From Bacteroidales bacterium (GTDB taxonomy: Bacteria > Bacteroidota > Bacteroidia > Bacteroidales > WCHB1-69), in the NCBI GenBank assembly GCA_031272415.1, contig JAISTU010000207.1:1-36879 (forward strand): a DNA stretch of 36,879 bases, read 5' to 3'. Under the pieces are notes generated by a model. It was given only the letters and a program-made list of their open reading frames with translations. It was not told where the DNA came from and searched no databases. The position numbers were made by a program, and so were the translations under genes. Positions within the stretch are counted from its first letter, which is position 1, and every line of letters starts with the position of its first letter. Of this stretch, positions 8,275-36,601 are shown in pieces.

Positions 8275-8291
8275 TTGATTAACAAAGAAAT

Positions 8292-8297: not shown

Positions 8298-8305
8298 ATA
8301 TAGAT

Positions 8306-8785: not shown

Positions 8786-8821
8786 CGACATTTGTTAGTT
8801 TTTTTATCATAATTTTATTTT

Positions 8822-8847
8822 GCCGCCCTCATAAGGGCGGCTTTTTT
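8822..8847 (+). terminator. Rho-independent terminator of the hydrogenase operon
   Basis: gccgccc-tcataa-gggcggc is a 7-bp GC-rich stem followed by tttttt. Confidence 0.85.
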
Positions 8848-8880
8848 AATTTTTAACATATAGCAATGGCACACCTTGAA

Positions 8881-9078
8881 TTAGAGTGGAGATTCTTTTG
8901 CATTTTTGCACTACCCTTGTCTGAACTTTGATTTTGAATGATTTTTTTGATTTGTGTGATTATTTTAATCCTGCCAATCTTATAAATCTTATGAAAATCG
9001 TGGTTCAGACAGGAAAGGCACAAAATTTAGAACATTTTTCTCCCAAAATGCAAAAAATCTCTACGCTCTCCACTCTAA
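8881..9078. repeat. MITE-like composite element with terminal inverted repeats
   Basis: The left end ttagagtggagattcttttgcattttt matches the right end aaaatgcaaaaaatctctacgctctccactctaa as an imperfect reverse complement. The interior unit gtctgaactttgattttgaatgatttttttgatttgtgtga...gttcagac spans 8919-9010. Confidence 0.75.
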
Positions 9079-9102
9079 AAAAAACTTCGCACTTTATAAA
9101 TT

Positions 9103-10170: not shown

Positions 10171-10183
10171 AACATGTTGATTA

Positions 10184-10846
10184 TCAAATAAATTCATAAA
10201 ATAGAGCAATTATTTTAATTTTATTGGATTGCGACATATCAACCGGATTGGTGCCATATTCGGATTGTGGTACGGTCGCATTATGACGTGCAAAATACTC
10301 AATCCATTCATCTGATACTGAACTATTTACGCCCTTAAAAGACATAATTTTTTGCTTAAACATCGGTTTTCCATTTTTCAAACGGTAACAATACCAAACC
10401 AACTCACTGCAATAAAAACTGCTGTCGGAAGGAGAAAACAGGTAATCGTATGGTTTAGAGATACATAAGTTGGCTTTTTGGAGTGCAGTCGGCAACAAAT
10501 ATTGGTATTTTTTTTTCACTCTTGCGAGACTTGCCAAATATTTTCCGGTAGCATCTTTTGCTATATCTTTCACAAAATCAGCGATATAAGTTTTACAAAC
10601 AAGCGGAGGTGTTGCCTCAATGACAAAAACGCTGTCATTGTCAATGTACACAATGCCAACATGCGTGTAAGGGAGACTTTGTTTTTTTGCAGTTGATGCA
10701 ACAATTGCGTCCGTAAAATCCGAACTCTTATTCACAATAAACAGTAAATCACCATTTTGTAAAATATTTTTTTGTGCAACCGCTCCGTTTTCTCCTGTAA
10801 AAACAATTCCAATCAACAAAAAAAAGATATATATTGCTTTGCTCAT
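10184..10846 (-). CDS. YiiX-like permuted papain-fold (NlpC/P60 superfamily) protein, secreted
   Basis: The start is set at 10846 (MSKAIYIFFLLIGIVF) because the upstream ATG at 10867 sits inside the promoter -7 box. Motifs are NGDLLFI, PYTHVGIVY and SFYCSELVWYCY (catalytic Cys context). Confidence 0.6.
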   Translation of the reverse strand: MSKAIYIFFLLIGIVFTGENGAVAQKNILQNGDLLFIVNKSSDFTDAIVASTAKKQSLPYTHVGIVYIDNDSVFVIEATPPLVCKTYIADFVKDIAKDATGKYLASLARVKKKYQYLLPTALQKANLCISKPYDYLFSPSDSSFYCSELVWYCYRLKNGKPMFKQKIMSFKGVNSSVSDEWIEYFARHNATVPQSEYGTNPVDMSQSNKIKIIALFYEFI

Positions 10847-10864
10847 AAAATATTGTGTAAAATG

Positions 10865-10897
10865 CAAAGATACACCTTTTTGTCAATTAAAAATTAA
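10865..10897 (-). promoter_or_regulatory. Promoter cassette (reverse complement: ttaatttttaattg-N11-TATCTTTG)
   Basis: caaagata at 10865-10872 and caattaaaaattaa at 10884-10897, immediately upstream of the minus-strand gene starting at 10846. Confidence 0.7.
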
Positions 10898-10913
10898 GAA
10901 CCTTTTTTTAATT

Positions 10914-11151
10914 GAGAATTGAGAATGGATAATTATTTTTTTTGCATTTTCGCACAAAATTGTTCTAAAAATGGTCATTTCCCGTCTGACAGTGCCTTTT
11001 CCTGCACCATATTGCAGACTCGCCCCGCAATCTCTTTGTCTGAACTATGATTTTGAATGATTAACATGATTACTATGATTTCACACAAATCAAAAAAATC
11101 TTACGAAAATCAAAGTTCAGACAATGCAAAAAAAACTCAAATTTTTTCTCC
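10914..11151. repeat. MITE-like composite element
   Basis: The left end is gagaattgagaatggataattattttttttgcattttcgcac (10914-10955). The right end is aatgcaaaaaaaactcaaattttttctcc (11123-11151), an imperfect inverted match. The internal hairpin unit at 11038-11122 is nearly identical to 4172-4256. Confidence 0.75.
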
Positions 11152-11191
11152 TTAACAATCCACAAAATAACAAAAAAATATTTTTTAATTC

Positions 11192-11224
11192 TTCATTTTT
11201 AATTGAGGAATTTGTGTATCTTTG
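11192..11224 (+). promoter_or_regulatory. Orphan promoter cassette (ttcatttttaattg-N11-TATCTTTG)
   Basis: Same cassette as upstream of bona fide genes, but the next convincing start codon is about 380 nt downstream at 11605. Confidence 0.55.
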
Positions 11225-11393
11225 CAAAACGTAAAAAAATATGGAGTAATGGAAAACGAAATCAGACAAAATTTTGGCTACAGCAATAAGGCTGTATTGA
11301 GGAGTAAAAAAGGTGCTTTAAGTGTCGCTCGTTTAGGAGGAGACGCCGAGAAGTGCGTTTTTGCTATGCAATGTGTTGATTATCAAGCATTTA

Positions 11394-11408
11394 CCCCCCC
11401 CCCCCCCC
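11394..11408. repeat. Homopolymeric C15 tract
   Basis: Fifteen consecutive C in an AT-rich context, flanked by tgattatcaa / tgataatcaa words. It lies between the orphan promoter and the methyltransferase ORF. Confidence 0.95.
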
Positions 11409-11604
11409 AACTCACTGATAATCAATAAGTTACGAAGCACAACCTATCCTCTCCTCAAAGGAGGAGAAAAGAAAAATAATCGTCTCAACCACAATATTAA
11501 TAAGGTTAGGAAGATTGACAAGATTTTGTGCTATCAAAATTCTTGGAAATTAAGTAGGATATTGGGGTGTGTATTGTGTGAAATTTTAAATAATAATTGC
11601 AATT

Positions 11605-12349
11605 ATGGGATTGATTTTAAAAATTAGACAATTTCATGTCAGGCAATTGTTTTTGCCTAATTTGTTCAGTGTTTTGGTAAATCCATTTTTCTTGTGTCGT
11701 GTAGGGATGGCAAAGCAAATTGCCCGCTTTGCAAAACAGTTCCCTCAAAATGGACGTATGCTTGATTTTGGTTGCGGGCATAAACCATATCGTTCTTTTT
11801 TTCCAAATGTTTCAGAATATATTGGTGTTGATTTTGAGAATGAAGGACATAGCCACAGCAAGGAAAAAATTGATGTTTCTTATGATGGAAAAACATTGCC
11901 TTTCCCCGATGCCTACTTCGATTGTGCAATTTGTACAGAGGTTTTAGAGCATGTCCCCGACATTGACGGCACTTTGGATTTGTTAAATCATGCTTGCAAA
12001 GACAAAGCATTGATTATTTTTACTGTTCCTTTTATCGGCTGAACACGAAATGCCATTTGATTTCAGACGTTTCACGCTTGTCGGATTAAAAGCCAAACTT
12101 GCAGAACACGGATTTGAAACACTTGAGTATAAGAAAAACGGCAACTCAATATCGCTTTTAACTCAATTATGGATAATGCTTATACATAGATTGTTGTATA
12201 CAAAAAACGTACTTTTAAACTATTTTATCAATTTCATTTTTATATTCCCCTTTACATTGCTTGGCTGTTTACTATCTGTTATTTTTAGACAACGAAAAGA
12301 GATGTATTTCGGAAGTATGATTTTAGCACAAAAAAACCATAAAATTTAA
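11605..12349 (+). pseudogene. Class I SAM-dependent methyltransferase, split by a +1 frameshift near 12030-12040
   Basis: ORF 11605-12042 carries the SAM-binding motif MLDFGCGHKPY and ends ...IIFTVPFIG*. Frame +1 continues as (L)SAEHEMPFDFRRFTLVGLKAKLAEHGFE (ORF 12050-12349), the expected continuation of the same fold. Confidence 0.7.
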
Positions 12350-12468: not shown

Positions 12469-12598
12469 TGTTTGGCAAGCATGCCATTGCTTCTACAGTA
12501 AATTATTTAGGGGGTTATTGAATAAATTTCCCTAAAAATAGCGAAAAAAAAGTTTAAATTCCTAAAAAATGGGGGTATATTAAGCCAAAAAAGTATTG

Positions 12599-12606
12599 TA
12601 TCTTTG
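12599..12606 (+). promoter_or_regulatory. -7 box TATCTTTG (gtattgTATCTTTGcaaaac) for the hmu-type cluster
   Basis: Consensus TAnnTTTG 29 nt upstream of the ATG at 12635. The ttaattttt-aattg block is absent here. Confidence 0.6.
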
Positions 12607-12634
12607 CAAAACAGTTAAATTATTAAAAAAAACT

Positions 12635-14851
12635 ATGAAAATTACATACATTATCACTATTGGATTATTTTTAGGCTGGTGCGGAAGTTTGTCGGCACAA
12701 AATCGGCAAATTTCAGGCATGGTAACGGCTACAGATGCCAAAACGGGCATTCCGTATGCCTCCATTAGCATCAAAGGAACAAATTTTGGGACTGCCGCCG
12801 ACAAAGATGGCAAATACGACCTTTCTTTGCCGGCGGTCGGAAAATATGTATTTTGGGTCAGAGCAATGGGATTTGAGCAACAAGAATGGACAATTGAAGT
12901 CAAAAAAGATACAGTGGTCAATTTTGTATTGCAGGCGGATAGATTGAACATGGAAGAGGTGGTGATTACCGGCACACGAACACCCAAAATGTTGAAAGAT
13001 GTGCCTGTTCCGACACGAATTATTCCGTCAAAAGATATACAAAATGCTGATGTTGTGAATGTTAAAGATATTTTAGAGACCGAACTTTCCGGCATGGAAT
13101 TTACCTCTCATGGTGGCTCTACGAATATCAATATGCAAGGTATGAGCGGAAAATATATTTTGTTTTTGCTTGATGGTGAGCGAATTGCGGGTGAAACGCG
13201 AGACAATGTAGATTATAACCGTTTAGATGCCACTAACATTGAGCGAATTGAAATTGTAAAAGGCTCTGCATCAGCGCTTTATGGCTCAAGTGCTATCGGA
13301 GGGGTGGTCAATATTATTACCAAAGATGCCCAACAGCCGTGGCAAGTGAGCCTTCATTCTCGCTATGGTAGCCATGCTCAACAGCAATATGGAGGCAATA
13401 TCGGCTTTAAAAAAGGAAAATTTAACAGCCTCACTTCGGCAAATTTCAAATATTTTAAAGGATATATGTTGAAAGATGCGGAAGGAATTGATTATTTATT
13501 TGAAAATGAGATAATTACAGATACTGCCAAATATTCTACCGAAGTCAAAGGATACAAAGATTTTTCGGTTCATCAAAAATTTACCTATCAGCCTGTAAAT
13601 CAATTAAAACTGACTTTAAAAGGTGGATTTTATCAGCATGAAGATTTAGGTTTGGCGAGCAACAATAAGCGAAATGATTTTTATTTAGGTGGAAATACCT
13701 CATTAAGAGGCGATTGGCAAATGACAAAAAAGCAAAGTTTGCAGTGGAATTATAATTTTGATATTTACAGCAAATTTGACCGTTTTTTGACCGAAGAGAT
13801 GGCGGGCGTTAAGAGAAACACTTACCAAAACACGCAACACACGGCGAATGTGCTTTTTCATCAATACTTTACGGACAATAATATTTTGACGGTCGGGGCG
13901 GAATTTGCGGGAGATTTTTTGCTCACCTACCAATTCAAAGACACGGGAGTTGAGAAAAGTTATAATTTTGTTGTTTTTGCCCAACATGATATACTGTTGT
14001 GGAAAAAATTCAATTTGGTATATGGCTTGCGGTTGGATTATAATACTGCGTTCAATCCTAACATAAGTCCCAAAGTATCAATGATGTACAAGTTGAAAGA
14101 TTTTACATTTCGTGTTTCTTACGGTGGTGGATTTCGCGCTCCTTCTTTGAAAGAATTATATACCGATTGGGATCATCAGGGCATGTTTCGTTTAGTGGGC
14201 AACAAAAATCTTAAACCCGAAAAAAGCCACAATTGCTCTTTGTCGGCTGAATATACAAGAAATATCTTAAATATTTCATTATTAGGATATTACAACTATA
14301 TCAAAGACCAAATTACAAGCATTTGGAATCAAAAAGAAGATACTGCATTTTATGTCAATCATGGAAAAGCGCAAACAGCGGGAATGGAACTCAATGCAAG
14401 AATTGAAACCGCCTTTGGGCTTTCCGTAAAATACTCATATTCATATACTTACACATATTCATTGGACGACATGGGTGTCAATATCAATTCCACTCGTCCG
14501 CACACCGCCACTCTGCAAGTAGGTTATCGTTTCAAAAAAGGAATTTATGAAATACAGCCGCTCATTCAGGGACGTGTGTTGAGTTCGTTGGAGATGAAAG
14601 GATATTCTGCCGACAGGAATGAGTATTACACCATTACGTACCCTGCTTACACTTTGTGGAAATTTATACTTAATCAACACTTTTTCAAGGCATTATCTTT
14701 ACAATTAGGCATTGAAAATATTTTTGATTACAAGGCAAAACATCAAACTTTCAATTCTTCACTCACGCCGGGGAGAACTTATTTTGCAGGTTTAAATATA
14801 GAAATTGACAAATTATTTCACTTAAAATACAAAAAATATAAAAAACTATGA
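12635..14851 (+). CDS. hmuR: TonB-dependent outer-membrane receptor, haem-receptor-like (HmuR-type)
   Basis: The start at 12635 gives a signal peptide (MKITYIITIGLFLGWCGSLSAQ). There is an N-terminal CarboxypepD_reg-like domain and a plug (EEVVITGTRTPK, ERIEIVKGSASALYGSSAIGGVVNIIT). FRAPSLKELYTDWDHQGMFRLVGNKNLKPE is a FRAP-x10-H...NxNL arrangement. The protein ends with a terminal aromatic-rich barrel strand. Gene context includes a CobN-like gene. Confidence 0.8.
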   Translation: MKITYIITIGLFLGWCGSLSAQNRQISGMVTATDAKTGIPYASISIKGTNFGTAADKDGKYDLSLPAVGKYVFWVRAMGFEQQEWTIEVKKDTVVNFVLQADRLNMEEVVITGTRTPKMLKDVPVPTRIIPSKDIQNADVVNVKDILETELSGMEFTSHGGSTNINMQGMSGKYILFLLDGERIAGETRDNVDYNRLDATNIERIEIVKGSASALYGSSAIGGVVNIITKDAQQPWQVSLHSRYGSHAQQQYGGNIGFKKGKFNSLTSANFKYFKGYMLKDAEGIDYLFENEIITDTAKYSTEVKGYKDFSVHQKFTYQPVNQLKLTLKGGFYQHEDLGLASNNKRNDFYLGGNTSLRGDWQMTKKQSLQWNYNFDIYSKFDRFLTEEMAGVKRNTYQNTQHTANVLFHQYFTDNNILTVGAEFAGDFLLTYQFKDTGVEKSYNFVVFAQHDILLWKKFNLVYGLRLDYNTAFNPNISPKVSMMYKLKDFTFRVSYGGGFRAPSLKELYTDWDHQGMFRLVGNKNLKPEKSHNCSLSAEYTRNILNISLLGYYNYIKDQITSIWNQKEDTAFYVNHGKAQTAGMELNARIETAFGLSVKYSYSYTYTYSLDDMGVNINSTRPHTATLQVGYRFKKGIYEIQPLIQGRVLSSLEMKGYSADRNEYYTITYPAYTLWKFILNQHFFKALSLQLGIENIFDYKAKHQTFNSSLTPGRTYFAGLNIEIDKLFHLKYKKYKKL

Positions 14852-17800
14852 GATTATTAAGAAAAAAAGGCAAAAAAATTATTATTTGTGCATCTATTGC
14901 ACTGTTTATCATTGGAATATGTGCTTTATTTATTCGTTTAAATACGGTAAAAATAGCCTTATTGAATTTTCCGAATTTTCAATATGCAAAAATGTTTAAG
15001 TCCAATACCAATCGATATATTGACTTGAAAAACATTACATTAGAAGATTTTGAAAAGTTAAAAAATTATGATGCTGTTTTGATTTTCGGCATGGGCATTC
15101 GCATGACGGATGAGCATAGAAAAGCATTGGGAGTCCTTAAAAATAAAGGAATTACAATTTATTCTACTGCTGTAACCGACCCTGTTAATCAAATTTCTAC
15201 ATTGGACAGTTTACAAGCGGCAAATGTGTCGGCATATTTGGAAAATGGAAGCCAAAAAAATTATCGTAATCTATTCAATTACATGCGAAAAGAGGTGTTG
15301 AAAAAGCATTTTTTTAATCAGCCTGTCGCAGCGCCGACCGTTGTCAGTTCGGACATATTTTTCCATTTGGATGGTGAAAATGTGTATAATTCCGTGTCTG
15401 AATTTGAAAATTATTACAAAAAAAATGGCTATTACAAGGAAAATGCCCCCAAAATAGCACTCATTTGTGGGATGATGGCACCTTTTGGGTCGGAGAAAGC
15501 CTATTTGGATTCGTTGATTATTGCACTGGAAGAAAAGCAATTAAATGTATATCCTTTTTACAGTTTTTCCAAGCGGTTTGAATTTTTGGAAAGCATTTCG
15601 CCCGATGCAGTGGTTTATTTGCCACACGGACGTCTTTTGATGGGCGAGGGCGACAAAATTACACATTGGTTAAAAAGTCGCAATATTCCACTCTTTTGTC
15701 CTCTTACTGTGCATGTTACGATAGATGAATGGCTCAAAAATAAACATGGAATGTTCGGCGGTTTTTTGAGTCAAAGTATTGTTATGCCTGAAATTGACGG
15801 CGGAATTATGCCCTTTACAGTTTTTGCACAACAAATTGATAATGAGGGACTTTACTCATTTGTTCCCATCTCTCATCGTTTGCAACAATTTGTAAATATT
15901 GTATCCAATTATATAAATTTAAAGCATAAACCAAACAAAGACAAAAAATTAGCGATTTATTATTACAAAGGTGCAGGCAATAATTCTTTGCTTGCGTTTG
16001 GCTTGGATGTTGTGCCTTCTTTGTATAATTTATTACAAATGCTTAAAAATGAGGGCTATACGGTCAAAAATTTGCCTTCTTCTGTGTCGGAATTTAAGGA
16101 TTTGATTTACAGACAAGGACCTGTTTTTAACAGTTATGCGGAGGGAAAAATTAACCAATTTTTGCACTCAAATTATCCCGCTTTTGTTGGACAAGAGGAA
16201 TACAATTTATGGCTTAAAAAGAGGCTTTTACCGCAAGTGGAACAACAATTACAGCAAAAATATGGCACACCGCCGGGGGAATATTTTACGCTCTCTCAAA
16301 ATGGAGAAAAGATGCTTGCTGTTACGCGTATTGAGTTGGGAAACATTGTTTTGTTGCCCCAGCCTGTGCAAGGGACGGGTGATAATTCATTCTCGGCGGT
16401 GCATGGCGACAATCCATTGCCTCCCTATCACTATATTGCTGCTTATTTGTGGGCACAAAATCATTTTCAAGCCGATGCTATGTTGCATTTTGGCACGCAT
16501 GGCTCTTTGGAATTTATACCCGGCAAACAGGTGGCTTTGTCTTCTTACGATTGGAGTGATATTTTGGTCGGTCAAACACCCCATTTTTACTATTACAGTA
16601 TTGCAGACGTGGGCGAGGCAATGATAGCAAAAAGAAGAACTTATGCCACGCTGATTAGCCACCTTAATCCGCCTTTTATAGAGACCCAATTGAATGAGAA
16701 GGTGGAGCATTTACAGCAAAAAATTCGCAATTATTTGTCATCAGATGCAAAAAATAAAGAAAAATCGCTTAATTTACAAATTAAAGCAGAGGTCATAAAA
16801 ATGGGTTTTCATCGAGATTTAAAATTAGATAGTTCTTTAATGCAAATTTATTCAGATGAAGATTTACAGAAAATAGATAATTTTGCAGAGGAGTTGTGCA
16901 GTGAGAAAATTACGGCAGGACAACACATTACAGGCATTGCTTTTGATGAGCGTAAAATACAATCTTCGGTGGTATTGATTTGCAGCGACCCCATTGCATA
17001 CAGTTTGGCACAATTGGACGTGTTGAAAGGAAAAATTACACCACAACAGATTGAAAATCAGCCTTATTTCAATGCAAATTATTATTTACCTGCCCAAAAA
17101 GCAGTCAAAAAAATGTTGGCAAATCCGAACATTGACCCTCTCAAAGTGCTTGTTTCTATAGGAATTAGCCCTTCGGAAATTGAAAAAGCAAAACAAATTA
17201 ACGCTCAAAGCCAGCCTACTGCAAATCCAATGGCGATGATGATGGCAAAACAGCCAACAAAAGGGAATAAAATGACATCTCAATCACCTGCAATGTCACA
17301 TTCTCCCCAAAATATGCCACAAAATACAAAAATTAGAACAAATTTATCCCAAAATGCAAAAAATCATCCGCAAAATATGTCGCAAAATGCACCTTCACAG
17401 TCGGAACAACTTATTAGTCAATCAATTATAACAATAGAAAACACTTTGCAAAAAGTCAATCAATATTATCAAAATTTAAAATTAAGTCCGCAAAATGAAC
17501 TCTCTCAATTGGTCAATGCGTTCAATGGAGGTTACATTTTGCCTTCTTCCGGTGGTGATTTTATCGCCAATCCAAGCACTTTGCCAAGTGGTAGAAATTT
17601 GTATGCAATCAATGCCGAAGCCATGCCGACACCGCAAGCATGGGAAAAAGGCGTTACGTTAGCAAAGGAACTCATTGATAAATACCGCAAAAATCACAGC
17701 AATCAATATCCACAAAAAGTGAGTTTTACGCTCTGGTCGGGCAGTTTTATTGAGAGCGAAGGGGCAACGATTGCACAAATTTTGTACCTTTTGGGGGTAG

Positions 17801-19077
17801 AGCCGGTGCGAGACCAATTTAATCGTGTTTTAGATGTTCGCTTAATCCCTGAAAATGAATTAAATAGACCTCATATAGATGTAGTTGTTCAGACTTCGGG
17901 GCAATTCAGAGATTTGGCGGCTTCACGTTTATTATTGTTACAGAAAGCCATTGATTTAGTGGCAAATACAGATACAAAAGTGGACAATTTTGTTCAAAAA
18001 GGCAATCAAAAAGCCGAAGAGATGCTGTTAAAGAGCGGTTTTTCTCCCAAAGATGCACGACAATTAGCGTCTGTTCGTATTTTTGGCGGTGTAAATGGTA
18101 TGGCAGGCACCGGCATTACGGCGATGGTGGAAAGTGGGGCGCGTTGGGAAAATGAGTCTCAAATTGCAGAAGTTTATCTCAATAATATGGGTGCAATTTA
18201 CAGTGATACAGGCAATTGGGGTGATTTTCAGGGCGGTGTTTTTGCCGCCGCTTTGCAAAACACGGATATAGTTGTGCAACCCAGACAAAGCAATACGTGG
18301 GGAGCGTTGAGTCTTGACCATGTGTATGAATTTATGGGGGGCATAACGTTGGCAGTTCGGAACGTAACAGGCAAAGAACCTGAGGCTTACTTCAATGATT
18401 TGAGAAATCATTACCATGTCCGAATACAGGATTTGAAAACTGCCATAGGGGTGGAAGCACGCACGACCATCTTCAATCCTGCCTATATTAAAGAGCATAT
18501 CAAAAGTGAAAGCGACGCCAATTCTTTTGCAGAAATTATTCGCAATACTTATGGATGGAATGTGATGAAACCCAGCGTAATAGACAACGAATTGTGGGAA
18601 CAAATTTTTGATACGTACATTGACGATAAATACAATCTGAATTTGAAAACGTTTTTTGAGACACAAAATCCTGCTGCTCTGCAAGAAATGACCGCCGTTA
18701 TGTTGGAAACGTACAGAAAAGGCTATTGGAAAACTGCCAATGAAAAAATTGCAAAATTGAGTACTTTACATGCCGATTTGGTTACAAAATATGGTGCAGG
18801 ATGCAGTGGTTTTGTGTGTGATAATGCAAAATTACAACATCTTATTTCTTCTCAATTACCTGATAATCAAAGAGATAGATACAATTCTCAAATTTCGCAA
18901 GCAAGGGAAATACAAACATCTGATAATCAGAACGTCGTGTTAAAAAAAGAAACTTTACAAGACAACTCTTTTACGCGGAAAAGCACTGCATTGTCCACGA
19001 TTTTGGCAATTGTGGGAGGCGTTGCAGTTGTGTTGGTTGTTTTGTTGATTATTGTTAAGAGGAGGAAAAATGACTGA
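14848..19077 (+). CDS. hmuS: CobN/Mg-chelatase-family large protein (HmuS-type), membrane-anchored at both ends
   Basis: 1409 aa, with an ATGA overlap with the receptor gene. CobN-family blocks include HFGTHGSLEFIPGK, LPSGRNLYAINAEAMPT, DVVVQTSGQFRDL and QPRQSNTWGALSLDHVYEFMGG. There is an N-terminal TM helix (IIICASIALFIIGICALFI) and a C-terminal TM helix (ALSTILAIVGGVAVVLVVLLIIV). Confidence 0.85.
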   Translation: MRLLRKKGKKIIICASIALFIIGICALFIRLNTVKIALLNFPNFQYAKMFKSNTNRYIDLKNITLEDFEKLKNYDAVLIFGMGIRMTDEHRKALGVLKNKGITIYSTAVTDPVNQISTLDSLQAANVSAYLENGSQKNYRNLFNYMRKEVLKKHFFNQPVAAPTVVSSDIFFHLDGENVYNSVSEFENYYKKNGYYKENAPKIALICGMMAPFGSEKAYLDSLIIALEEKQLNVYPFYSFSKRFEFLESISPDAVVYLPHGRLLMGEGDKITHWLKSRNIPLFCPLTVHVTIDEWLKNKHGMFGGFLSQSIVMPEIDGGIMPFTVFAQQIDNEGLYSFVPISHRLQQFVNIVSNYINLKHKPNKDKKLAIYYYKGAGNNSLLAFGLDVVPSLYNLLQMLKNEGYTVKNLPSSVSEFKDLIYRQGPVFNSYAEGKINQFLHSNYPAFVGQEEYNLWLKKRLLPQVEQQLQQKYGTPPGEYFTLSQNGEKMLAVTRIELGNIVLLPQPVQGTGDNSFSAVHGDNPLPPYHYIAAYLWAQNHFQADAMLHFGTHGSLEFIPGKQVALSSYDWSDILVGQTPHFYYYSIADVGEAMIAKRRTYATLISHLNPPFIETQLNEKVEHLQQKIRNYLSSDAKNKEKSLNLQIKAEVIKMGFHRDLKLDSSLMQIYSDEDLQKIDNFAEELCSEKITAGQHITGIAFDERKIQSSVVLICSDPIAYSLAQLDVLKGKITPQQIENQPYFNANYYLPAQKAVKKMLANPNIDPLKVLVSIGISPSEIEKAKQINAQSQPTANPMAMMMAKQPTKGNKMTSQSPAMSHSPQNMPQNTKIRTNLSQNAKNHPQNMSQNAPSQSEQLISQSIITIENTLQKVNQYYQNLKLSPQNELSQLVNAFNGGYILPSSGGDFIANPSTLPSGRNLYAINAEAMPTPQAWEKGVTLAKELIDKYRKNHSNQYPQKVSFTLWSGSFIESEGATIAQILYLLGVEPVRDQFNRVLDVRLIPENELNRPHIDVVVQTSGQFRDLAASRLLLLQKAIDLVANTDTKVDNFVQKGNQKAEEMLLKSGFSPKDARQLASVRIFGGVNGMAGTGITAMVESGARWENESQIAEVYLNNMGAIYSDTGNWGDFQGGVFAAALQNTDIVVQPRQSNTWGALSLDHVYEFMGGITLAVRNVTGKEPEAYFNDLRNHYHVRIQDLKTAIGVEARTTIFNPAYIKEHIKSESDANSFAEIIRNTYGWNVMKPSVIDNELWEQIFDTYIDDKYNLNLKTFFETQNPAALQEMTAVMLETYRKGYWKTANEKIAKLSTLHADLVTKYGAGCSGFVCDNAKLQHLISSQLPDNQRDRYNSQISQAREIQTSDNQNVVLKKETLQDNSFTRKSTALSTILAIVGGVAVVLVVLLIIVKRRKND
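17333..17365 (+). repeat. Intergenic-type repeat module embedded in frame in hmuS
   Basis: ttagaacaaatttatcccaaaatgcaaaaaatc matches 190-224 (ttagaacaaatttatcctaaaatgcaaaaaaaatc), differing by one substitution and a shorter A run. Here it is translated as ...IRTNLSQNAKNH... Confidence 0.85.
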
Positions 19078-26075: not shown

Positions 26076-26110
26076 TTTTAGAACGTTTTTATCCCAAAAT
26101 GCAAAAAAAA
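26076..26110 (+). repeat. Repeat module ttttagaacgtttttatcccaaaatgcaaaaaaaa
   Basis: 35 nt identical to 23143-23177. It sits between convergent stop codons, so it is not tied to a promoter here. Confidence 0.9.
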
Positions 26111-26119
26111 TAGGTAAAT

Positions 26120-28516
26120 TTACATTTCTACGACTGTAATTCCGGTGCCGCCAAATTCTTCTTTTTGGTCATAAAATGCTTTAACAAAGCGTTGTTTGCG
26201 CAAGAATTCGCGTATTTTGAGACGCAAAATTCCATTTCCTTTTCCGTGTAAAATACTCACTTGATGTATGCTCAACAATGCTGCGTCGTCCAAATATTTT
26301 TCAACCTCTTGCAAAGCCTCGTCTGCACGAAAGCCTCTGATGTCCAATTGAAGGGAAAAATTGGCAGTTTTTTTGCTTAAATCGGGATAAAGAGAGCCTG
26401 ATTTACGGATTTTTTTGGCTTCTGTGCGTGAAATTTTGCGTACATTTTTTTTGTCCGTGCGTACATTGATAGAATTGAACGACACCACTACCTCATCACC
26501 ATTGATAGTCGTTATTTCCCCAATAGTGTGCGTATCTTCCATAATTACGGTGTCATATAAGGCAATTTGAGGGTCTATATCTGCAATTTTTTCGTTTTCA
26601 GTGGCGGGAGGTATTTCTTTTTTGTTCTCTTCTTCCATTTGTTGAACCACTTTTTGGATTTCTGCTTTTGCTTTTTTTGTAACTTCCTTATTTGCTTGGT
26701 GTTCGCGGATTTCTTTGACTGTTTTTTCAATCAATTTATTGGTATCTTTGAGCAAATTTTGTGCTTCTTGTCGGCTTGTTTTAAGGATTTTTGCTTGCTG
26801 TGTTTGTAGTGATGCTAATTTTTCTTCATATTCTTTTTTTAGTTCAATGAATTGATTTTGAGCGATTTCCAATGATTTTTTTTGTTCATCTACTTCTTTT
26901 TCTTTGTTTTGCAATCGGTGCAAAAGTTGGTCATATTTAATTTTTTCTTTTCCTGCAATTTGCGTGGCACGGGCGAGAATGTGTGGATTGAGACCCGATT
27001 TTTGTGCAATTTCAAAAGTGAATGAGGTGCCGTATTGACCGATTTTGAGTTCAAAAAGAGGACGCATTTCATTGGTATCGAACAGCATAGCGCCATTTTC
27101 AATTTTAGAATTATTGAGTGCCATCATTTTCAATTTTCCAAAATGAGTTGTTACCAATCCGCAAGCATTTTTTGCCGCCAAAGTTTCCAAAAGTGCTTCT
27201 GCAATTGCCTCTCCGTAATGCGGGTCTGTGCCTCCCCCCAATTCGTCCAACAAAAACAAACTATCAGGACGTGCTTTGGAGAGCAAAATTTGCATATTTT
27301 TTAAATGTGAAGAATACGTACTTAAATCATTATCAATTGATTGCTCATCTCCAATATCAATAAAAATATCTTTAAAAATACCAAATTCCGACAAAGGACT
27401 GCAACAAACAGGCAACCCGCATTGAAACGAATATTGTGTTAATGCTAATGTTTTTAAACACACTGACTTACCCCCTGCATTAGGACCTGAAATAACCAAT
27501 ATTTTAAATTTTTCACCCAAAACAATGTCCATAGGTACAACGGGTTTATTTTTGGACTTCAAATGTAACCAAAGCAATGGATGCACTGCTTTTTTCCAGT
27601 GAATAAAAGGCTGATTGGAAATAATCGGTTTGCAAGCATTCATTTGGAGTGCAAATTTGGCTTTTGCTCTTATAAAGTCAATGATACTCAAATAGTTATA
27701 ACCTTCCAAAACAGACGGCAAACAAGGACGCAAATTGTCAGTAAATTGTTTTAAAATAAGCACTATTTCTCGCCTTTCTTCCAATTGCAGATTGTGCAGA
27801 TGATTGTTAGATTCATAAATATCTTGTGGCTCAATAAAATACGTTTGTCCACTTGCTGAGACATCTCTTATAATTCCTTTCACTTTCCGCTTGTTGACTG
27901 CCGGCACAGGCAACACAAAAGCACCATCTCTGATATTGAGTTCGGCATTATCGTCAATGAGTTTGAGTTGTTTGTGAAATTGCAGATTTTTCTTTGCCAA
28001 AGCAGAAAGTTCGTTTTCTGTTTCCCGAATTTGCCGCCGAATAAAAGACAATTGTTCTGACGCAGTATCTTTTATAACTCCTTTATTATCAATAATTTCA
28101 TCAATTTGCAACAAATAATTTTCATGCAAATCCATATTTGTCGATAAATGAGAAAGTTGTGGATATTTAGAAATATTTTGTTCATTTTTGAAAAAAATCA
28201 AACAAGCATCAATTGTGTGCAAAGAATCCCTCAGATTACACAAATTTTCAATCTCAATAAAAGTGCCTTCTGTTTGTAAGCGATTGATTTCCTGCGTCAT
28301 ATCAAAATAATTTTGTGCAGGAAAGTAGGCATTTGAGAGCAAAATTTGTATAAATTCGTCCGTTTGTGTATGTACTTTTTGCAGGTAGGAATAGGAGGTA
28401 CTGATACGAATTTTATCTACCTGTCTTTTTCCTAATGTGCTAATACAGTGTGTTTTAAGTAAATTCCGAATTTGTTCAAAATCAATTTTATTTTCAAAAT
28501 CGGCAGGATAAATCAT
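26120..28516 (-). CDS. mutS2: Endonuclease MutS2 (MutS-family ATPase with a C-terminal Smr domain)
   Basis: Walker A ISGPNAGGKSV, Walker B region LFLLDELGGGTDP, a coiled-coil K/E-rich linker and the Smr domain LDIRGFRADEAL...ILHGKGNGILR. Confidence 0.9.
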   Translation of the reverse strand: MIYPADFENKIDFEQIRNLLKTHCISTLGKRQVDKIRISTSYSYLQKVHTQTDEFIQILLSNAYFPAQNYFDMTQEINRLQTEGTFIEIENLCNLRDSLHTIDACLIFFKNEQNISKYPQLSHLSTNMDLHENYLLQIDEIIDNKGVIKDTASEQLSFIRRQIRETENELSALAKKNLQFHKQLKLIDDNAELNIRDGAFVLPVPAVNKRKVKGIIRDVSASGQTYFIEPQDIYESNNHLHNLQLEERREIVLILKQFTDNLRPCLPSVLEGYNYLSIIDFIRAKAKFALQMNACKPIISNQPFIHWKKAVHPLLWLHLKSKNKPVVPMDIVLGEKFKILVISGPNAGGKSVCLKTLALTQYSFQCGLPVCCSPLSEFGIFKDIFIDIGDEQSIDNDLSTYSSHLKNMQILLSKARPDSLFLLDELGGGTDPHYGEAIAEALLETLAAKNACGLVTTHFGKLKMMALNNSKIENGAMLFDTNEMRPLFELKIGQYGTSFTFEIAQKSGLNPHILARATQIAGKEKIKYDQLLHRLQNKEKEVDEQKKSLEIAQNQFIELKKEYEEKLASLQTQQAKILKTSRQEAQNLLKDTNKLIEKTVKEIREHQANKEVTKKAKAEIQKVVQQMEEENKKEIPPATENEKIADIDPQIALYDTVIMEDTHTIGEITTINGDEVVVSFNSINVRTDKKNVRKISRTEAKKIRKSGSLYPDLSKKTANFSLQLDIRGFRADEALQEVEKYLDDAALLSIHQVSILHGKGNGILRLKIREFLRKQRFVKAFYDQKEEFGGTGITVVEM

Positions 28517-28531
28517 TTTGTCTTTTTTACT

Positions 28532-29359
28532 TTATAAAATATTTTTTAATAATTCTTCTGCTGTCATTTCCATTTTGGAAAATGCAAAAAGTTTTTTACC
28601 TAAGTCTTTTAATGATGCTCCGATATGGTATAAATCATTGTCAATCAATAGAAAACGGTCATGTATATTTGGTTTTTCTTGCATCAAAATTTTAGGATAT
28701 TGTGCATTCTGTTTTTGTAAATCCAATCGCAAAGTGTCTGAAATTTCTTTTGTAAAAATTGTTGCTTTTACCTTGCTTTTTCGCTTGGAAAGTAAAGTTA
28801 AAACACTCATATCCAGGTAATTATCTGTCACTACAATTTCTTTTTTTGCTGTTTCAATCAAATCGGAAACAAATTTATAAGCATCAAAAATTTGTCCGTT
28901 GTAAAAAACACCTTCTTTTTCTTTTGGAGGCAATTCGGTACGAACTATAAAATCTATCTGTTTTTCCGTTTGTGTAACACGATATTCCAAACGCTCAAAA
29001 CGTTGATTGATAGCATAGCCTTTTAAAATATAATCTCTTAACGTTTTTGTAGCCCAAATACGAAATTCAGTACCACGTTGAGATTTTACTCGGTAACCAA
29101 CAGAAATTATTACATCCAAATTATAAAAAGCGACAGGTCTATCAATATTTGTAATATGCAAAATTTGCATATTGCTTTTTGCGTCAAGTTCTTTTTCCTT
29201 AAAAACATTCTTTATATGCTTGGATATAACCGATTGGTCACGCTCAAAGAGCATAACCATTTGTGCCTGCGTGAGCCAAACAGTATCGTTTTCCACTCTG
29301 ACATCCAACTGAACACTATCGTTAGGATTATACAATATAATTTCGTTTTTTGTATTCAT
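28532..29359 (-). CDS. RhuM-family protein (virulence-associated RhuM-like; function unknown)
   Basis: The N-terminus IILYNPNDSVQLDVRVENDTVWLTQAQMVMLF...ISKHIKNVFKEKEL, then FYNLDVIISVGYRVKSQRGTEFRIWATKTLRDYILKGYAIN, and the C-terminal HDRFLLIDNDLYHIGASLKDLGKKLFAFSKM match my recollection of the RhuM family. Confidence 0.7.
   Translation of the reverse strand: MNTKNEIILYNPNDSVQLDVRVENDTVWLTQAQMVMLFERDQSVISKHIKNVFKEKELDAKSNMQILHITNIDRPVAFYNLDVIISVGYRVKSQRGTEFRIWATKTLRDYILKGYAINQRFERLEYRVTQTEKQIDFIVRTELPPKEKEGVFYNGQIFDAYKFVSDLIETAKKEIVVTDNYLDMSVLTLLSKRKSKVKATIFTKEISDTLRLDLQKQNAQYPKILMQEKPNIHDRFLLIDNDLYHIGASLKDLGKKLFAFSKMEMTAEELLKNIL
29153..29173. repeat. Perfect palindrome aatatgcaaa-a-tttgcatatt inside the RhuM-family gene
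   Basis: 10-nt arms around one central base. It shares a 19-nt core with the palindrome at 29425-29449. Confidence 0.9.
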
Positions 29360-29691
29360 TTTGTTCTATTTTGTGATATGTTTTCAACTAAAAATGTTAC
29401 GTCCTGTATTTCCCCATTTGTTATAGTATATGCAAAATTTGCATATACTGAATTTCGTTGCGAATTTTGAACTGTCAAGAAATCCTTGACAGTTGATTTT
29501 TGTAATTCGCCTTCTTTGATAATATTTTTGACATGCAAACTAATATTTTGTTTTGTTGTAGCAAACAAAACGGTCATTTGTGCCTGCGTGAGCCAAACAG
29601 TATCGTTTTCAATCATCACTTCCAACTGAACACTATCGTTGGGTTTATATAATATTATTTCATTTTTCTTGTCGGCAATTGGGGTAGTCAT
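29356..29691 (-). pseudogene. Truncated RhuM-family paralogue (N-terminal about 80 aa only)
   Basis: IILYKPNDSVQLEVMIENDTVWLTQAQMTVLF...ISLHVKNIIKEGELQKSTVKDFLTVQ, after which similarity is lost. 36 nt (29575-29610) and 20 nt (29621-29640) are identical to 29258-29293 and 29304-29323. The stop overlaps the start of the full-length copy (ATGA). Confidence 0.6.
29425..29449. repeat. Perfect palindrome agtatatgcaaa-a-tttgcatatact
   Basis: 12-nt arms around one central base. It is located where the truncated RhuM paralogue loses family similarity. Confidence 0.9.
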
Positions 29692-29694
29692 ATT

Positions 29695-30441
29695 TTAGTC
29701 ATTTTTCAGAGACTCTTCTGCAATCTTTTTTAGCACTGCATTGATTTTCATGCGTTTTTCTTTACTGAAACTGCACAACTGCTCTTGAAATTCGGCAAGA
29801 ATATCATTTTCGAGATGCTTATTTCCCACAACTTTATATTTCAAATAATACAATTTCCCTTGCTGTTCTTTGTAATTGACTTCTTCGTCCGAAAGAGCAG
29901 TGAGTGCTTTTGGGTCCCAGTTCACCATTCGTACTCCTCTGTAAATCAGCCCTTTATCGTATAAATCACAAAAGACTTTCAGCACTGATTTTGAGCGAAT
30001 TTCATCCATTGTGAATGCAGTCCTGTCCCAGTCGCAGGAGCAGCCCAATTTTTTAAGTTGTTCAAGGATAATTCCGCCGTGTTTGTGTGTCCACTCCCAA
30101 GCATGTTTAAGAAACTCTTCGCGGGAGAGGTCGCTTTTTTTGACGCCTTCTTGTGCCAATTTATTAACTACTTTGGCTTCGGTGGCAATTGAGGCATGGT
30201 CAGTTCCCGGCACCCAGCAGGCATTTTTTCCTTGCATTCTTGCCCTGCGTACAAGCACGTCCTGAATGGTATTGTTGAGCATGTGTCCCATGTGCAAAAC
30301 ACCGGTAACATTGGGAGGCGGAATAACAACAGTATAAGGCTTTTGTGCATTAGGCTGAGAATGAAAAAGTTTATTTTCAAGCCAATATTTATACCATTTT
30401 TCCTCGATTTTATGCGGTTCGTATTTTGATGATATTTCCAT
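29695..30441 (-). pseudogene. valS: Valyl-tRNA synthetase, 5' fragment only (about 205 of about 870 codons) with an unrelated 40-aa tail
   Basis: The N-terminus is classic ValRS: [55 protein letters not shown] ... [19 protein letters not shown]...[10 protein letters not shown]. The expected TTRPET and KMSKS regions are absent. The ORF ends at 29695 and RhuM-family ORFs follow directly. Confidence 0.8.
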
Positions 30442-30450
30442 TATATTCCT

Positions 30451-31746
30451 TTATTCTTTGGGCTTTCCGTTAGACAAAAATTCCATTGTTTCGTTAGATT
30501 TTGCTTTTTTATTGTAAAATTCTACCGAATAATAAGGTTTTTGACCGGGTTGATAAATTATACTGCCTTCATTTACAGTCGATTTGGGATAATTATTTTC
30601 AATATATGTCCGAATGGAAGAAGGTATACTTTCAATTTTTGCCAATTTAATAACTGTTTCTTTCCACTCTGCATTTTGGGTATAAGTAACAGTATTTTCG
30701 CCTTTTGCATCAGTGAAAGTGGCTACATAATTTTGCTCCTCATCGTACATCCAATCTGCATCTTTGGCACGTGGATAGCGAGATTTGAGCAATGAATCAA
30801 AAACTGTTTTTACAGAATCTTCCCATACAACAGATTTGGGGCGATAGGCAGGCTTAATCTCTTCTTTTTGTTCAACTTCCTCACTTTGTTCAACCACTTT
30901 GTAAGGGTCATCTACTTTGAGAAATTTTCCATCTCGTGTAAACCACACTGTCGCATGAGGCTGATTGACACCATTTCTTTGAATAACAATCTGATACACA
31001 CTACCTTCCTGCTCAAATTCGTCATATTCATCATAATCTATTTGTTTGTAAATATAATCGGGATAATTTTTGGCGACCCATCTTTGAATGGCGGCAGGCA
31101 GTTCATCTTCTCTCAATTTTGTAGGATAAATTTCCATAGAACGCGAATTTTCAAACGCTTTTTCTATTTTTTTATCTTCCTGTTCTTCTTTTTTTGCATT
31201 TTTAGTGTTTTTTGTTGTCTCGTTTGTTTGTTCTGTGCGAATAACTTTCCCTGTTTTGTCTAAATAAACACGCGTAATTTGTTTATTTTTAATGTTTTGT
31301 TGTTCATAAATAGTAACTATGAACTGGTCATTTTTATCACTCCGCGTCTCTCTTTGCAGACTTTCCAATTTAAAATTAGGAAAAAACTCATTCACACTCT
31401 TTGCCTGCGAAGACATAAAACGCTCATTAGGCAATTTTTCCAATGTTCTTTTCCAAACGCCCATAGTATCCAAATCAATCACAGACGCAACATCCCTTAA
31501 CGAGCAACTGATTCTGTAAATCCCGTCCGATTTAACAAATTCCCATTGCTGTTCGGTGGCAGAAGAGAACTTCTTTTTAAACATTTTCATCACATTTTCA
31601 GGGATTTGGTCTTCCCTTAAATATGTTTTTGTCGCCACAGAAGTGTCGTTTTTTTTAGATTTTTGTGCTTGTACAAAACCTACACAAACCGTTGTCAGTA
31701 ACACCAACAAAATCAATTTTCTCAAATTTATTCCTGTCTTAATCAT
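30451..31746 (-). CDS. Secreted protein with repeated PepSY-like (DUF2874-type) modules
   Basis: It has a signal peptide (LILLVLLTTVCVGFVQAQ). Four modules have the form [I/L]P..[V/I]...[F/V]...[F/Y]P.......W/Y... (IPENVMKMFKKKFSSATEQQWEF; LPAAIQRWVAKNYPDYIYKQIDY; VKTVFDSLLKSRYPRAKDADWMY; IPSSIRTYIENNYPKSTVNEGSI). There is a K/E-rich central linker. Confidence 0.5.
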   Translation of the reverse strand: MIKTGINLRKLILLVLLTTVCVGFVQAQKSKKNDTSVATKTYLREDQIPENVMKMFKKKFSSATEQQWEFVKSDGIYRISCSLRDVASVIDLDTMGVWKRTLEKLPNERFMSSQAKSVNEFFPNFKLESLQRETRSDKNDQFIVTIYEQQNIKNKQITRVYLDKTGKVIRTEQTNETTKNTKNAKKEEQEDKKIEKAFENSRSMEIYPTKLREDELPAAIQRWVAKNYPDYIYKQIDYDEYDEFEQEGSVYQIVIQRNGVNQPHATVWFTRDGKFLKVDDPYKVVEQSEEVEQKEEIKPAYRPKSVVWEDSVKTVFDSLLKSRYPRAKDADWMYDEEQNYVATFTDAKGENTVTYTQNAEWKETVIKLAKIESIPSSIRTYIENNYPKSTVNEGSIIYQPGQKPYYSVEFYNKKAKSNETMEFLSNGKPKE

Positions 31747-31816
31747 TATATTACGAATTTTAAATACAATTTAATTATTATGTTATAACGTTTATTGAGA
31801 TATTTTATTGTATATT

Positions 31817-31843
31817 GAATGCAAAAAAAATCTACATTTACAT
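31817..31843 (+). repeat. Partial repeat module gaatgcaaaaaaaatctacatttacat
   Basis: Same aaatgcaaaaaaaatctaca core as 211-228. Confidence 0.7.
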
Positions 31844-31853
31844 TTTTTTAATT

Positions 31854-31886
31854 TTATTTTTTAATTGAAGGAAAAGTGTATCTTTG
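31854..31886 (+). promoter_or_regulatory. Promoter cassette variant (ttattttttaattg-N11-TATCTTTG)
   Basis: The -7 box at 31879-31886 is 49 nt upstream of the ATG at 31935. Confidence 0.65.
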
Positions 31887-31934
31887 TATTTTTAAAATAT
31901 TTTTGTAGTATTAATTAAATAAACTGTAAATTTC

Positions 31935-36050: not shown

Positions 36051-36134
36051 GCCCAGGTGGCGGAATTGGTAGACGCGTTGGTCTCAAACACCAATGGGGT
36101 AATTCCCGTACCGGTTCGACTCCGGTCCTGGGCA
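36051..36134 (+). tRNA. tRNA-Leu (anticodon CAA)
   Basis: Acceptor stem gcccagg/cctgggc, D-arm gcg/cgc with aattggtaga loop, anticodon stem ttggt/accaa, loop ctCAAac, long variable arm (class II), T-arm accgg-ttcgact-ccggt, discriminator A. No encoded CCA. Confidence 0.95.
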
Positions 36135-36135
36135 C

Positions 36136-36187
36136 AAAACAGTCTGATATTATTATATATGTTTATATCAGGCTGTTTTGCTTTTTA
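36136..36187 (+). terminator. Long hairpin terminator after tRNA-Leu
   Basis: aaaacagtctgatat-N14-atatcaggctgtttt is a 15-bp stem with one G-U pair, followed by gcttttt. Confidence 0.7.
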
Positions 36188-36601
36188 TGCAATGCCCTTT
36201 ATATTGTAAATAAAGTGTTAAATCGTCTATCCAAAGTCCATTTTCAATGGCTATCCTTTTTAATTCTTGTTGGAAAGCAAACTTCGACCACCTCCGCTCA
36301 GTTTGAGATTGTTCTCCCAAATTTTCCGCGATTCCTCCTCTGTAGGCGGAGTTGATCGTTTCACGGATTCGCTGTTCTGTTTTGCCCTCATCCAATAATC
36401 TCTGTTCGTTATTGTCTCCCATTGGAAATCTGTCACCCATTCGGGTCTTTCGTTGTTTTTACCTATTATTTCCTGTAACTTCTGCTCTGCATTCTTATTA
36501 ACCTGACATCTAAATAACCTTTTAAAGAAATTAAATATCTTTTGCCACCATTTTAAATTAGCCTCATTCTCTACCTGTATAAAATTCTGATCCGAAATCA
36601 T
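36168..36601 (-). pseudogene. Degraded gene of unknown function (two overlapping reading frames)
   Basis: ORFs 36260-36601 and 36168-36440 overlap in different frames and read like parts of one protein (...ERPEWVTDFQWETITNRDYW... / ...EQRIRETINSAYRGGIAENL...FQQELKRIAIENGLWIDD...). The 3' end runs into the tRNA terminator hairpin. No family recognised. Confidence 0.3.

Follow-up and report, generated by a model that had tools for sequence, protein, structure and literature searches.

Friedrich and colleagues are said to have reported in 2007 a 'genes-in-pieces' ribonucleotide reductase in phage Aeh1, with the gene order nrdA-a / mobE / nrdA-b. The pieces encoded by this nrdA gene, which is split by mobE, assemble with each other, and the tails derived from the element are essential for activity (Crona et al. 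2011, PMC3045599). The locus analysed here lies in a 36,879-nt stretch of DNA from a Bacteroidales bacterium (hereafter the window) and concerns valS, the gene for valyl-tRNA synthetase (ValRS). Like Aeh1 nrdA it is an essential enzyme gene split by a free-standing selfish gene, with new C-terminal and N-terminal tails at the break, a selfish gene tightly coupled to the upstream piece, and pieces that are separately translated and, we infer, assemble. New tail and head peptides (at the end of the upstream and the start of the downstream piece, respectively) that are absent from the unsplit orthologues, as expected of genes in pieces, were found. The two cases differ in their setting: Aeh1 concerns a phage ribonucleotide reductase and an HNH/MobE endonuclease, whereas here the host is a cellular chromosome, the broken gene encodes an aminoacyl-tRNA synthetase, and the gene at the first break (site 1) belongs to the RhuM/PDC-S05 family. 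Unlike Aeh1, moreover, the present system has two break sites and up to three pieces that are dispersed in the genome, its tail and head are paralogous to each other and recur at another RhuM locus, and the role of these tails is a proposed one.

Naturally split synthetases are also known, namely the LeuRS alpha/beta of Aquifex aeolicus and the AlaRS of Nanoarchaeum equitans, each of which consists of two polypeptides that assemble into an active enzyme. The present ValRS resembles these enzymes in being a synthetase made as separate polypeptides; to our knowledge, the Aquifex and Nanoarchaeum splits lie at other break points, are associated with no selfish gene and have no reported conserved tail/head motif. 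Shiba and Schimmel reportedly observed in 1992 that fragments of IleRS/MetRS type, broken around the CP1 insertion, reassemble non-covalently in vitro. This tolerance of class I synthetases for breaks around CP1 makes both break sites described here (sites 1 and 2) plausible, although those fragments were laboratory-made and without docking peptides. Split genes of N. equitans have been discussed in the literature (PMC3491384). Split inteins and 'fractured genes', in which a homing endonuclease gene lies between two ORFs (Dassa et al. 2009, PMC2677866), share with our locus a host gene broken into two ORFs around an inserted gene; intein blocks are absent here, and no protein splicing is therefore expected. 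No description of a split ValRS was found in the literature searched. Genes in pieces (in phage) and split synthetases are thus already known, but that literature yielded no ValRS divided into two or three scattered pieces by RhuM/PDC-S05, T5orf172 and DUF1016 genes and bearing a paralogous tail and head. We consider it likely that the truncated valS ORF of the window encodes the functional N-terminal subunit of such a ValRS in pieces, with assembly predicted to be non-covalent.

A truncated valS followed by RhuM genes

The ORF at 29695..30441 (reverse strand; 248 codons plus stop) is intact and can be read as the opening part of a valyl-tRNA synthetase gene that has been split (the N piece). 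Its residues 1–205 (29827..30441, reverse strand) form a ValRS core, delimited by alignment with the T. thermophilus enzyme (1GAX) and by invariant columns, and the 43 residues that follow (29698..29826, reverse strand) form a C-terminal tail with a conserved motif, which we propose to be a cassette-derived docking peptide. The core contains the HIGH motif as HMGH (residues 50–53; 30283–30294, reverse strand) and spans the first half of the Rossmann fold, reaching the first strands of the CP1/editing insertion; the N piece possesses the class Ia Rossmann-fold half together with its HIGH signature. Pfam tRNA-synt_1 matches residues 15–221 of the N piece, corresponding to profile positions 1–209 of 414 (E 1.3e-61), and the NCBIfam valS models match residues 4–209 only (profile positions 2–207), with scores of 280–330 bits against the full-length equivalog cut-off of 612–704 bits. 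The ORF alone is not a complete ValRS. Within the core there are 118 invariant columns (14 relatives), and every conserved ValRS residue is kept in the window; overall the N piece is 75–84% identical to the orthologous ValRS of relatives, with no acceleration of change. No exact match to the 248-aa product was found on record.

In the alignment with T. thermophilus ValRS the N piece covers residues 1–208, and ValRS similarity ends at about residue 205–208 (~29820–29830), where the 43-aa non-ValRS tail takes over. Neither the N piece nor the window contains a CP1 editing domain, a KMSKS loop, an anticodon-binding domain or a C-terminal coiled coil, and a tRNA-synthetase domain was found nowhere else among the window ORFs of at least 90 aa. 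These results agree with the original prediction, in which some 205 N-terminal codons of valS run into other sequence near 29815–29830 and the rest of the gene is not encoded downstream: the truncation is borne out by the Pfam, NCBIfam and 1GAX alignments, and the two ValRS stretches on which it had drawn, the HIGH region and a second one, are both present in the N piece. The sequence beyond the break had been called unrelated, which holds in so far as the tail is not ValRS; the tail is, however, a conserved motif with a paralogous head on the next piece.

Two RhuM ORFs and mutS2 lie directly behind the valS fragment, as had been predicted and as Pfam matches and ORF positions bear out. The first, which starts 3 nt past the N-piece stop, is a truncated RhuM-like ORF of 111 aa comprising the N-terminal part only (29356..29691, reverse strand). 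Its residues 8–85 are matched by the PADLOC PDC-S05 models, it is 46% identical to the RhuM of a related locus (L001), and its position corresponds to that of the RhuM gene behind the tail in L001 and in a further locus (L175). The second is a full-length gene of the RhuM family/PDC-S05, encoding 275 aa (28532..29359, reverse strand), which begins within the truncated copy, the two sharing 4 nt at the stop of the latter. Its likeness to the family (PF13310 / PDC-S05) consists in a full-length match to PADLOC PDLC04879 (PDC-S05; E 6.4e-117) and a match to Pfam PF13310 in the N-terminal part (residues 71–130, 73.5 bits against a cut-off of 33.7, covering profile positions 16–73 of 252 only). This RhuM is 50% identical to that of L001, and its nucleotide identity to the RhuM gene of L175 is 72.5%. 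A 93-nt direct repeat, with copies at 29258..29350 and 29575..29667 that are 88% identical, shows that the 5' end of RhuM has been partly duplicated in tandem. Directly after the RhuM ORFs, tightly packed, comes mutS2 (26120–28516, reverse strand). In L001 and L175 the cassette runs on past RhuM, where the next piece begins with its start codon and head, a continuation that is absent in the window. The 15-nt spacer from the RhuM stop to the mutS2 start (28517..28531, reverse strand), delimited by alignment of RhuM 3' ends, marks a rearrangement breakpoint, the cassette having been cut right past the RhuM stop, where mutS2 begins. Comparison with relatives, which had been suggested from the outset, found ValRS pieces in their loci, and valS–mutS2 synteny was present in none of these other loci.

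RhuM is a PADLOC candidate defence gene (PDC-S05), and a role as toxin domain has been suggested for it (PMC3710099). Elsewhere the family occurs in pathogenicity and defence islands and in R-M neighbourhoods, whereas in the window's relatives it lies within an essential gene, between stretches that code for a tail and a head, an arrangement for which we found no description in the literature searched. That literature also holds nothing specific on RhuM as a nuclease. A search for a relative of RhuM in the PDB returned none, and its single-sequence AF2 model had a pLDDT of 36.

Split valS genes in related loci

Our comparison with related loci suggests how such an N piece can arise. In L001 the N piece with its tail (8274–9029) is followed, with a 4-nt overlap, by a RhuM gene (9026–9748) and then by a third ORF encoding a head and the rest of valS. 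This third ORF starts MNTTEIINQLGSEFSAEELAKIAEIALQVEQKAKN (its start is also given as MNTTEIINQLGSEFSAEELAKIAEIA), continues YAVVATTRPETIFGDTAMC and proceeds through YAVVATTRPET as the rest of ValRS. By the order of these ORFs, valS is divided by a RhuM gene; the upstream piece ends in a tail, and the downstream piece begins with a head. The break (site 1) falls between residues 208 and 209 of T. thermophilus ValRS, at the start of the editing insertion. A second break (site 2) falls at about residues 417/418, after WWGHxIPAWY, where the middle pieces (M pieces) end. It holds a DUF1016/YhcG PD-(D/E)XK gene in L005 and L006, a T5orf172-GIY-YIG+EcoRI-methylase-like gene in L007, L008 and L010, and other genes in L174 and L172; the site-2 genes are of nuclease families (GIY-YIG/T5orf172, YhcG PD-(D/E)XK). 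Behind them lie C-terminal pieces (C pieces) of 458–509 aa with KMSK(S/Q), Anticodon_1 and Val_tRNA-synt_C, and at least 30 clusters of C pieces within this size range (458–509 aa) were found. The new ends at site 2 are short and of opposite charge, M pieces ending in VEVEEN.. or EKRETSEL and C pieces starting with MSKDKK... A host ORF interrupted by a free-standing gene, with its halves on either side, is seen in L001 at site 1 and in L005, L007, L010, L172 and L174 at site 2; the window retains only the upstream half and the RhuM genes.

Pieces of valS also occur singly or in other combinations. An N piece with tail is followed by an HPPK gene in L002, without RhuM and without further valS, and a locus from the same sample (L003) has a 261-aa M piece, composed of a head and ValRS residues ~209–418, between DUF805 and release-factor genes. 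Another M piece of 267 aa (P0121, in L004) begins 12 nt past the end of ahcY. In L011 the N and M parts are found with no C piece nearby, in L171 a stand-alone C piece follows an epimerase gene, and P0267 represents a two-piece version in which head, M and C are contained in 716 aa. The M piece aligns to residues 209–418 of 1GAX, with the editing domain present in P0121; as the N piece corresponds to residues 1–208, nothing is lost at site 1. Unsplit genes make up 141 of the 167 loci with this part of valS (two further loci are without valS), and the true splits all come from apparent termite-gut metagenomes or genomes, judged by sample series and source names.

The truncated form is shared and constrained. 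The same truncation, with the tail motif LAEFQxQLxxFSxEKxxKI, is found in at least nine other metagenomic proteins, and the longer motif LAEFQxQLxxFSxEKxxKIxAxLKxIAE in P0002, P0003, P0004, P0006, P0008, P0011, P0357, P0360 and P0361. The N-terminal ValRS fragments returned by the protein search are 248–358 aa long and all stop at the same place; in all three protein searches none of the matches listed exceeds about 1.75 times the length of the query, and the absence of full-length ValRS among them is not biological. Codon comparison of the window with L001 and L002 gave, for the ValRS core, pS of 0.71–0.75, pN of 0.07–0.10 and dN/dS of 0.02–0.05. For the tail, pS was 0.57–0.77 and pN 0.20–0.28, with dN/dS of about 0.2–0.35 (about 0.2 in one pair, pS being saturated in the other two). 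The M-piece cores had pN/pS of 0.15–0.21, and their heads were less constrained than the tails (pN/pS 0.34–0.95 over 33 codons). Because the synonymous sites of the tail have diverged, it is the peptide that is constrained rather than its DNA. The split is, in addition, common to three lineages with saturated synonymous change, and hence the N piece and its tail have long been maintained by selection after the break. Looking for the hallmarks of a pseudogene, we found neither relaxed selection (core dN/dS 0.02–0.05) nor disabling mutations, the ORF being intact. A gene-decay reading of the N piece is not supported by these comparisons, and the ongoing gene decay suspected in the original prediction is at odds with a conserved family, purifying selection and the existence of matching downstream pieces.

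Tails and heads align in register, with E, L, F and E invariant and K and I nearly so. Their similarity has a z of 18 and was reached by 0 of 1000 shuffles; for the window tail against the P0121 head, p was 0.003. Tail and head are paralogous copies of one motif of ~30 aa. Among the sequences compared the motif occurs at split ends only, and it is present in none of the 141 unsplit valS loci. Modelling suggests, at low confidence, that the tail may be helical: the AF2 model of the N piece, built from a 14-row alignment, had a pLDDT of 44.5, and the helical tendency of the tail was the sole feature used.

Searching 1.84 billion representatives with the tail only returned the N pieces and one other protein, P0362, which consists of a head, DUF3805/3806, a valS-like remnant (FAIAAAPRPET) and a tail. 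Within its locus (L175), P0362 is followed, with a 4-nt overlap, by RhuM and then by a 424-aa ORF ending in ..CAPRPET..tail, and the tail-, RhuM- and head-coding DNA is 81–93% identical between L175 and L001. The presence of tail–RhuM–head DNA at two loci, at this level of identity, argues that the unit of tail, RhuM and head acts as a repeated, portable cassette. One speculative extension, which we hold to be possible but doubtful, is that this unit is a gene-splitting cassette that carries its own cognate docking peptides and would tether or shuffle immunity-like domains via the docking pair and the site-1 loop of valS. Equipped with its own docking pair, such a cassette could cut any host ORF without killing it, and it would then amount to a non-covalent modular 'protein Lego' kept by a selfish element in a cellular genome. 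The immunity-like domains concerned are DUF3805/3806 in P0362, and SUKH and DUF1871 in related inserts.

Downstream pieces of the window organism

The sequence of the window is present in two public runs from two studies, a termite gut metagenome (X1; 98% of sampled words) and X2 (69%). A 3088-nt contig of SRR14710912 carries the window MutS2 and is the 3088-nt X1 contig matching the window; X1 is therefore SRR14710912. The same run has the M piece P0121 on a contig of 1107 nt. Its contig has a depth of 115 in X1 and 6.2 in X2, and the window contigs have depths of 102–117 and 2.9–7.3, respectively. Other valS-bearing organisms stand at 132, 73 and 49 in X1 and at 27–31, 33 and 65 in X2, with quite different X1/X2 ratios. 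When X1 was compared with L011, whose valS is not broken at site 1, the N contig (117x) ended at the break with a loose end (GTTGTGGGAAATAAGCATCTCGAAAATGAT) that is the tail, the 115x M contig began just past the break, and the depth at the break fell to 23.7. No X1 contig of at least 100x spanned site 1. From the co-abundance in two metagenomes and the complementarity of the two pieces, we infer that P0121 is the M piece of the window organism. Behind the stop of P0121 a T5orf172-like ORF begins (MKAEPSNQYIYI). Scans of metagenomes and GTDB genomes with P0121 did not recover the organism of the window.

The C piece of the organism was not found with the L010 C piece as bait, this bait being too divergent. 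Another C piece from the same run, P0238, has a depth of 14.6x and thus belongs to another organism. A tentative candidate is a 7657-nt X1 contig at 82.5x, in which the match starts exactly at site 2 and of which X2 has variants at 2–5x. Only P0270 (jgi+Logan) shares its local variant peptide EYRGKEPFKN, and P0270 can tentatively be put forward as the C piece of the window organism. Among the four options raised in the original prediction, relocation of the 3' part comes closest to these results: the run also has, at equal depth, a separate contig with a matching M piece that abuts the break, whereas the C piece is tentative.

Proposed assembly and alternative explanations

We propose that a selfish gene entered a surface loop of valS in termite-gut Bacteroidales, with RhuM as the putative agent of insertion at site 1. 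The upstream part would thereby have gained a stop and a tail, and the downstream part a start and a head, and the selfish gene would be translationally coupled to the upstream piece (3-nt spacer in the window; 4-nt overlaps in L001 and L175). Each of the three pieces would be translated independently. Tail and head (~30 aa, probably helical) may dock on each other, and in this way the pieces would reassemble non-covalently; by analogy with Aeh1 NrdA, the product would be an active enzyme and may charge tRNA-Val. The purifying selection seen on the pieces and on the tail would lend indirect support to assembly and to a requirement for the tail. As each piece has its own start and stop, rearrangement can separate the pieces, and later rearrangements may have scattered them. 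In the window organism the N piece would have stayed with the RhuM remains (one truncated, one intact) beside mutS2, and the M piece would have come to lie behind ahcY on another contig.

A ValRS in pieces would have implications for annotation as well as for the elements involved. Annotation pipelines and human readers alike will take ORFs like the N piece for pseudogenes or 'partial' genes, the NCBI relatives being named 'class I tRNA ligase family protein, partial' or 'hypothetical protein', and a genome may be scored as being without an essential synthetase, with distorted completeness estimates and inferences of symbiont decay as a result. If the proposal is true, the genes-in-pieces solution extends from a phage ribonucleotide reductase to an essential cellular enzyme of translation. 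Short peptide pairs, such as the site-1 tail and head or the acidic and basic ends at site 2, may serve as docking tags, and RhuM/PDC-S05, DUF1016/PDC-S02 and T5orf172 genes may act as intragenic selfish elements, not solely as defence-island genes.

Several other explanations of the truncated ORF can be weighed against this proposal. The N piece could be a relic, a 5' stump left by a rearrangement or by RhuM insertion, with a second intact valS elsewhere serving the cell, as the original prediction had envisaged. Such a gene is not found in the window, which has no further valS, and a divergent copy (below ~80–85% nucleotide identity) would be beyond the reach of the baits used; the tandem duplication and partial degradation of RhuM also speak for local instability. 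A stump left behind would not, however, be expected to keep an intact ORF and all conserved ValRS residues, or to show, over three lineages, dN/dS of 0.02–0.05 in its core and ~0.2–0.35 in its tail. The same form is found in at least nine other sequences, no X1 contig at the depth of the organism spans site 1, and the co-abundant M piece abuts the break. Given a conserved family with purifying selection on both core and tail, we consider a relic unlikely.

Conservation as a stand-alone protein would also fit a paralogue that has been neofunctionalised (e.g. to a regulatory or RhuM-linked task), with ValRS activity coming from another gene, and in L175 the tail motif is indeed also carried by non-ValRS ORFs beside RhuM. 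This explanation is distinctly improbable in our view, as the ValRS catalytic motifs are kept at 75–84% identity to orthologous ValRS, and matching M and C pieces exist that are equally constrained and, in L001, contiguous. The conserved stand-alone product that the original prediction had allowed for is thus real, but it appears to be a subunit of a split synthetase, not a paralogue with a new job.

Covalent rejoining of the pieces would be a different solution, whether through a split intein, trans-splicing, ribosomal bypass or the programmed excision of DNA; instances from other fragmented genes are cited in PMC3045599 and PMC2677866. We regard this as very unlikely for valS. Tail and head together amount to ~80 aa; the junctions lack Cys, Ser and Thr, the downstream ValRS sequence is not preceded by His-Asn, and inspection of tails and heads for intein blocks (a Cys/Ser N-extein junction; terminal His-Asn followed by Cys/Ser/Thr) found none. 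No recombinase gene adjoins, and the location of the pieces on different contigs with unrelated neighbours rules out bypass and local excision. Genuine loss of ValRS in a host-dependent symbiont, another of the options first considered, is highly improbable: reduced symbionts do occur in the termite gut habitat, and other broken genes in the window had been remarked upon, but the window has many intact large genes, purifying selection acts strongly on both the N and the M piece, and the M piece is present at matching depth.

Lastly, the metagenomic origin of the window and nearby repeats (the RhuM copies and an AT-rich, high-depth stretch at 26076–26109) could speak for an assembly chimera at 29815–29830, one of the options in the original prediction. 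The chance of this is negligible, since single contigs from two independent studies cross it with 0 differences at the depth of the organism (a 498-nt X1 contig at depth 117, spanning ValRS, tail and RhuM, and a 1095-nt X2 contig at depth 7.3), the X1 and X2 contigs offer no rival continuation or competing loose end at comparable depth, and the same type of junction is found in unrelated assemblies. An inverted joint from 26109 to 31894 was also encountered; a graph tangle at AT-rich sequence of low complexity probably accounts for it.

In-frame domain and linker inserts in ValRS

At both positions where valS is broken in relatives (site 1, T. thermophilus ValRS residues 208/209; site 2, ~417/418), we found that ValRS carries in-frame DUF559/Vsr-like endonuclease domains (PF04480, PF18741). 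They occur in two related loci, L018 and L031 (valS site 1), and in the related proteins P0024, P0031, P0041 and, at site 2, P0344. On either side the domains are bordered by Pro/Gly-rich linkers (..PPSPPEGG.. and ..SPSGGVEGA..), and comparable short inserts in four further proteins (P0126, P0005, P0007 and P0127) comprise the linker only, with no endonuclease domain. These inserts look like palindromic selfish DNA residing within coding sequence. Additional in-frame inserts at site 1 were seen in ValRS that is either unsplit or of the N+M form: an SMI1/KNR4 (SUKH-1) immunity-type domain in locus L012 (3032-3676 region, E 1.5e-17), an insert of ~120 aa with no assigned domain in locus L010 (7736-9346), and a DUF1871 domain ahead of the tail peptide in protein P0011.

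RhuM copies and a cassette-like array outside valS

In the termite-gut metagenome run SRR14710912 (X1), a contig at depth 212 omits 447 nt between the window's two RhuM copies (29017-29465), and depth across 29015-29617 is ~1.5-2x that of the flanks; RhuM-like sequence is therefore present in X1 in extra copies or variants. Components of the cassette also occur at a non-valS locus, L175, as an array (8001-11538) running from P0362 (head, DUF3805/3806 and tail) through RhuM and a 424-aa ORF with a terminal tail to another ORF. The array also includes A(A/T)(P/T)RPET, the junction peptide of valS, in 2 or 3 degenerate copies.

Other contigs matching the region around the valS fragment

A second run with sequence of the window, X2, contains, besides the window's organism, a relative in which valS has no break at site 1. 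Here a 333-nt contig (depth 3.2) lies on window 29825-29909 with ~86% nucleotide identity to the window's N piece, and has a loose end reading ..ENGYAVVATT. In X1, a single contig (depth 95) links window 26109 to 31894 on opposite strands, and k-mer depth reaches ~14,000 in the AT-rich intergenic stretch at 26076-26109. This joint is probably a graph tangle over low-complexity sequence, or it may reflect inversion of the mutS2-RhuM-valS-N-PepSY block in some of the population.

Broken and intact genes bearing on gene decay

The original prediction of a frameshifted methyltransferase corresponds to the SAM-methyltransferase at 11605-12349, which is read in two frames as a 145-aa part with Methyltransf_23/11 matches and a 99-aa part with no match. 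In the 36051-36601 region, two overlapping minus-strand ORFs (90 and 113 aa), neither with a Pfam match, come after tRNA-Leu(CAA) (36051-36135). Large intact genes disfavour general genome decay: a 592-aa [FeFe]-hydrogenase with NuoF-like and thioredoxin-like ferredoxin genes (4600-8785), and a 1409-aa CobN together with a TonB-dependent receptor (12596-19077).

At L001, a related locus with split valS, RhuM, the selfish gene, is itself in decay: a MITE-like 48-nt inverted repeat (9545-9650, 75% complementary) lies within its coding sequence and takes the place of part of the protein.
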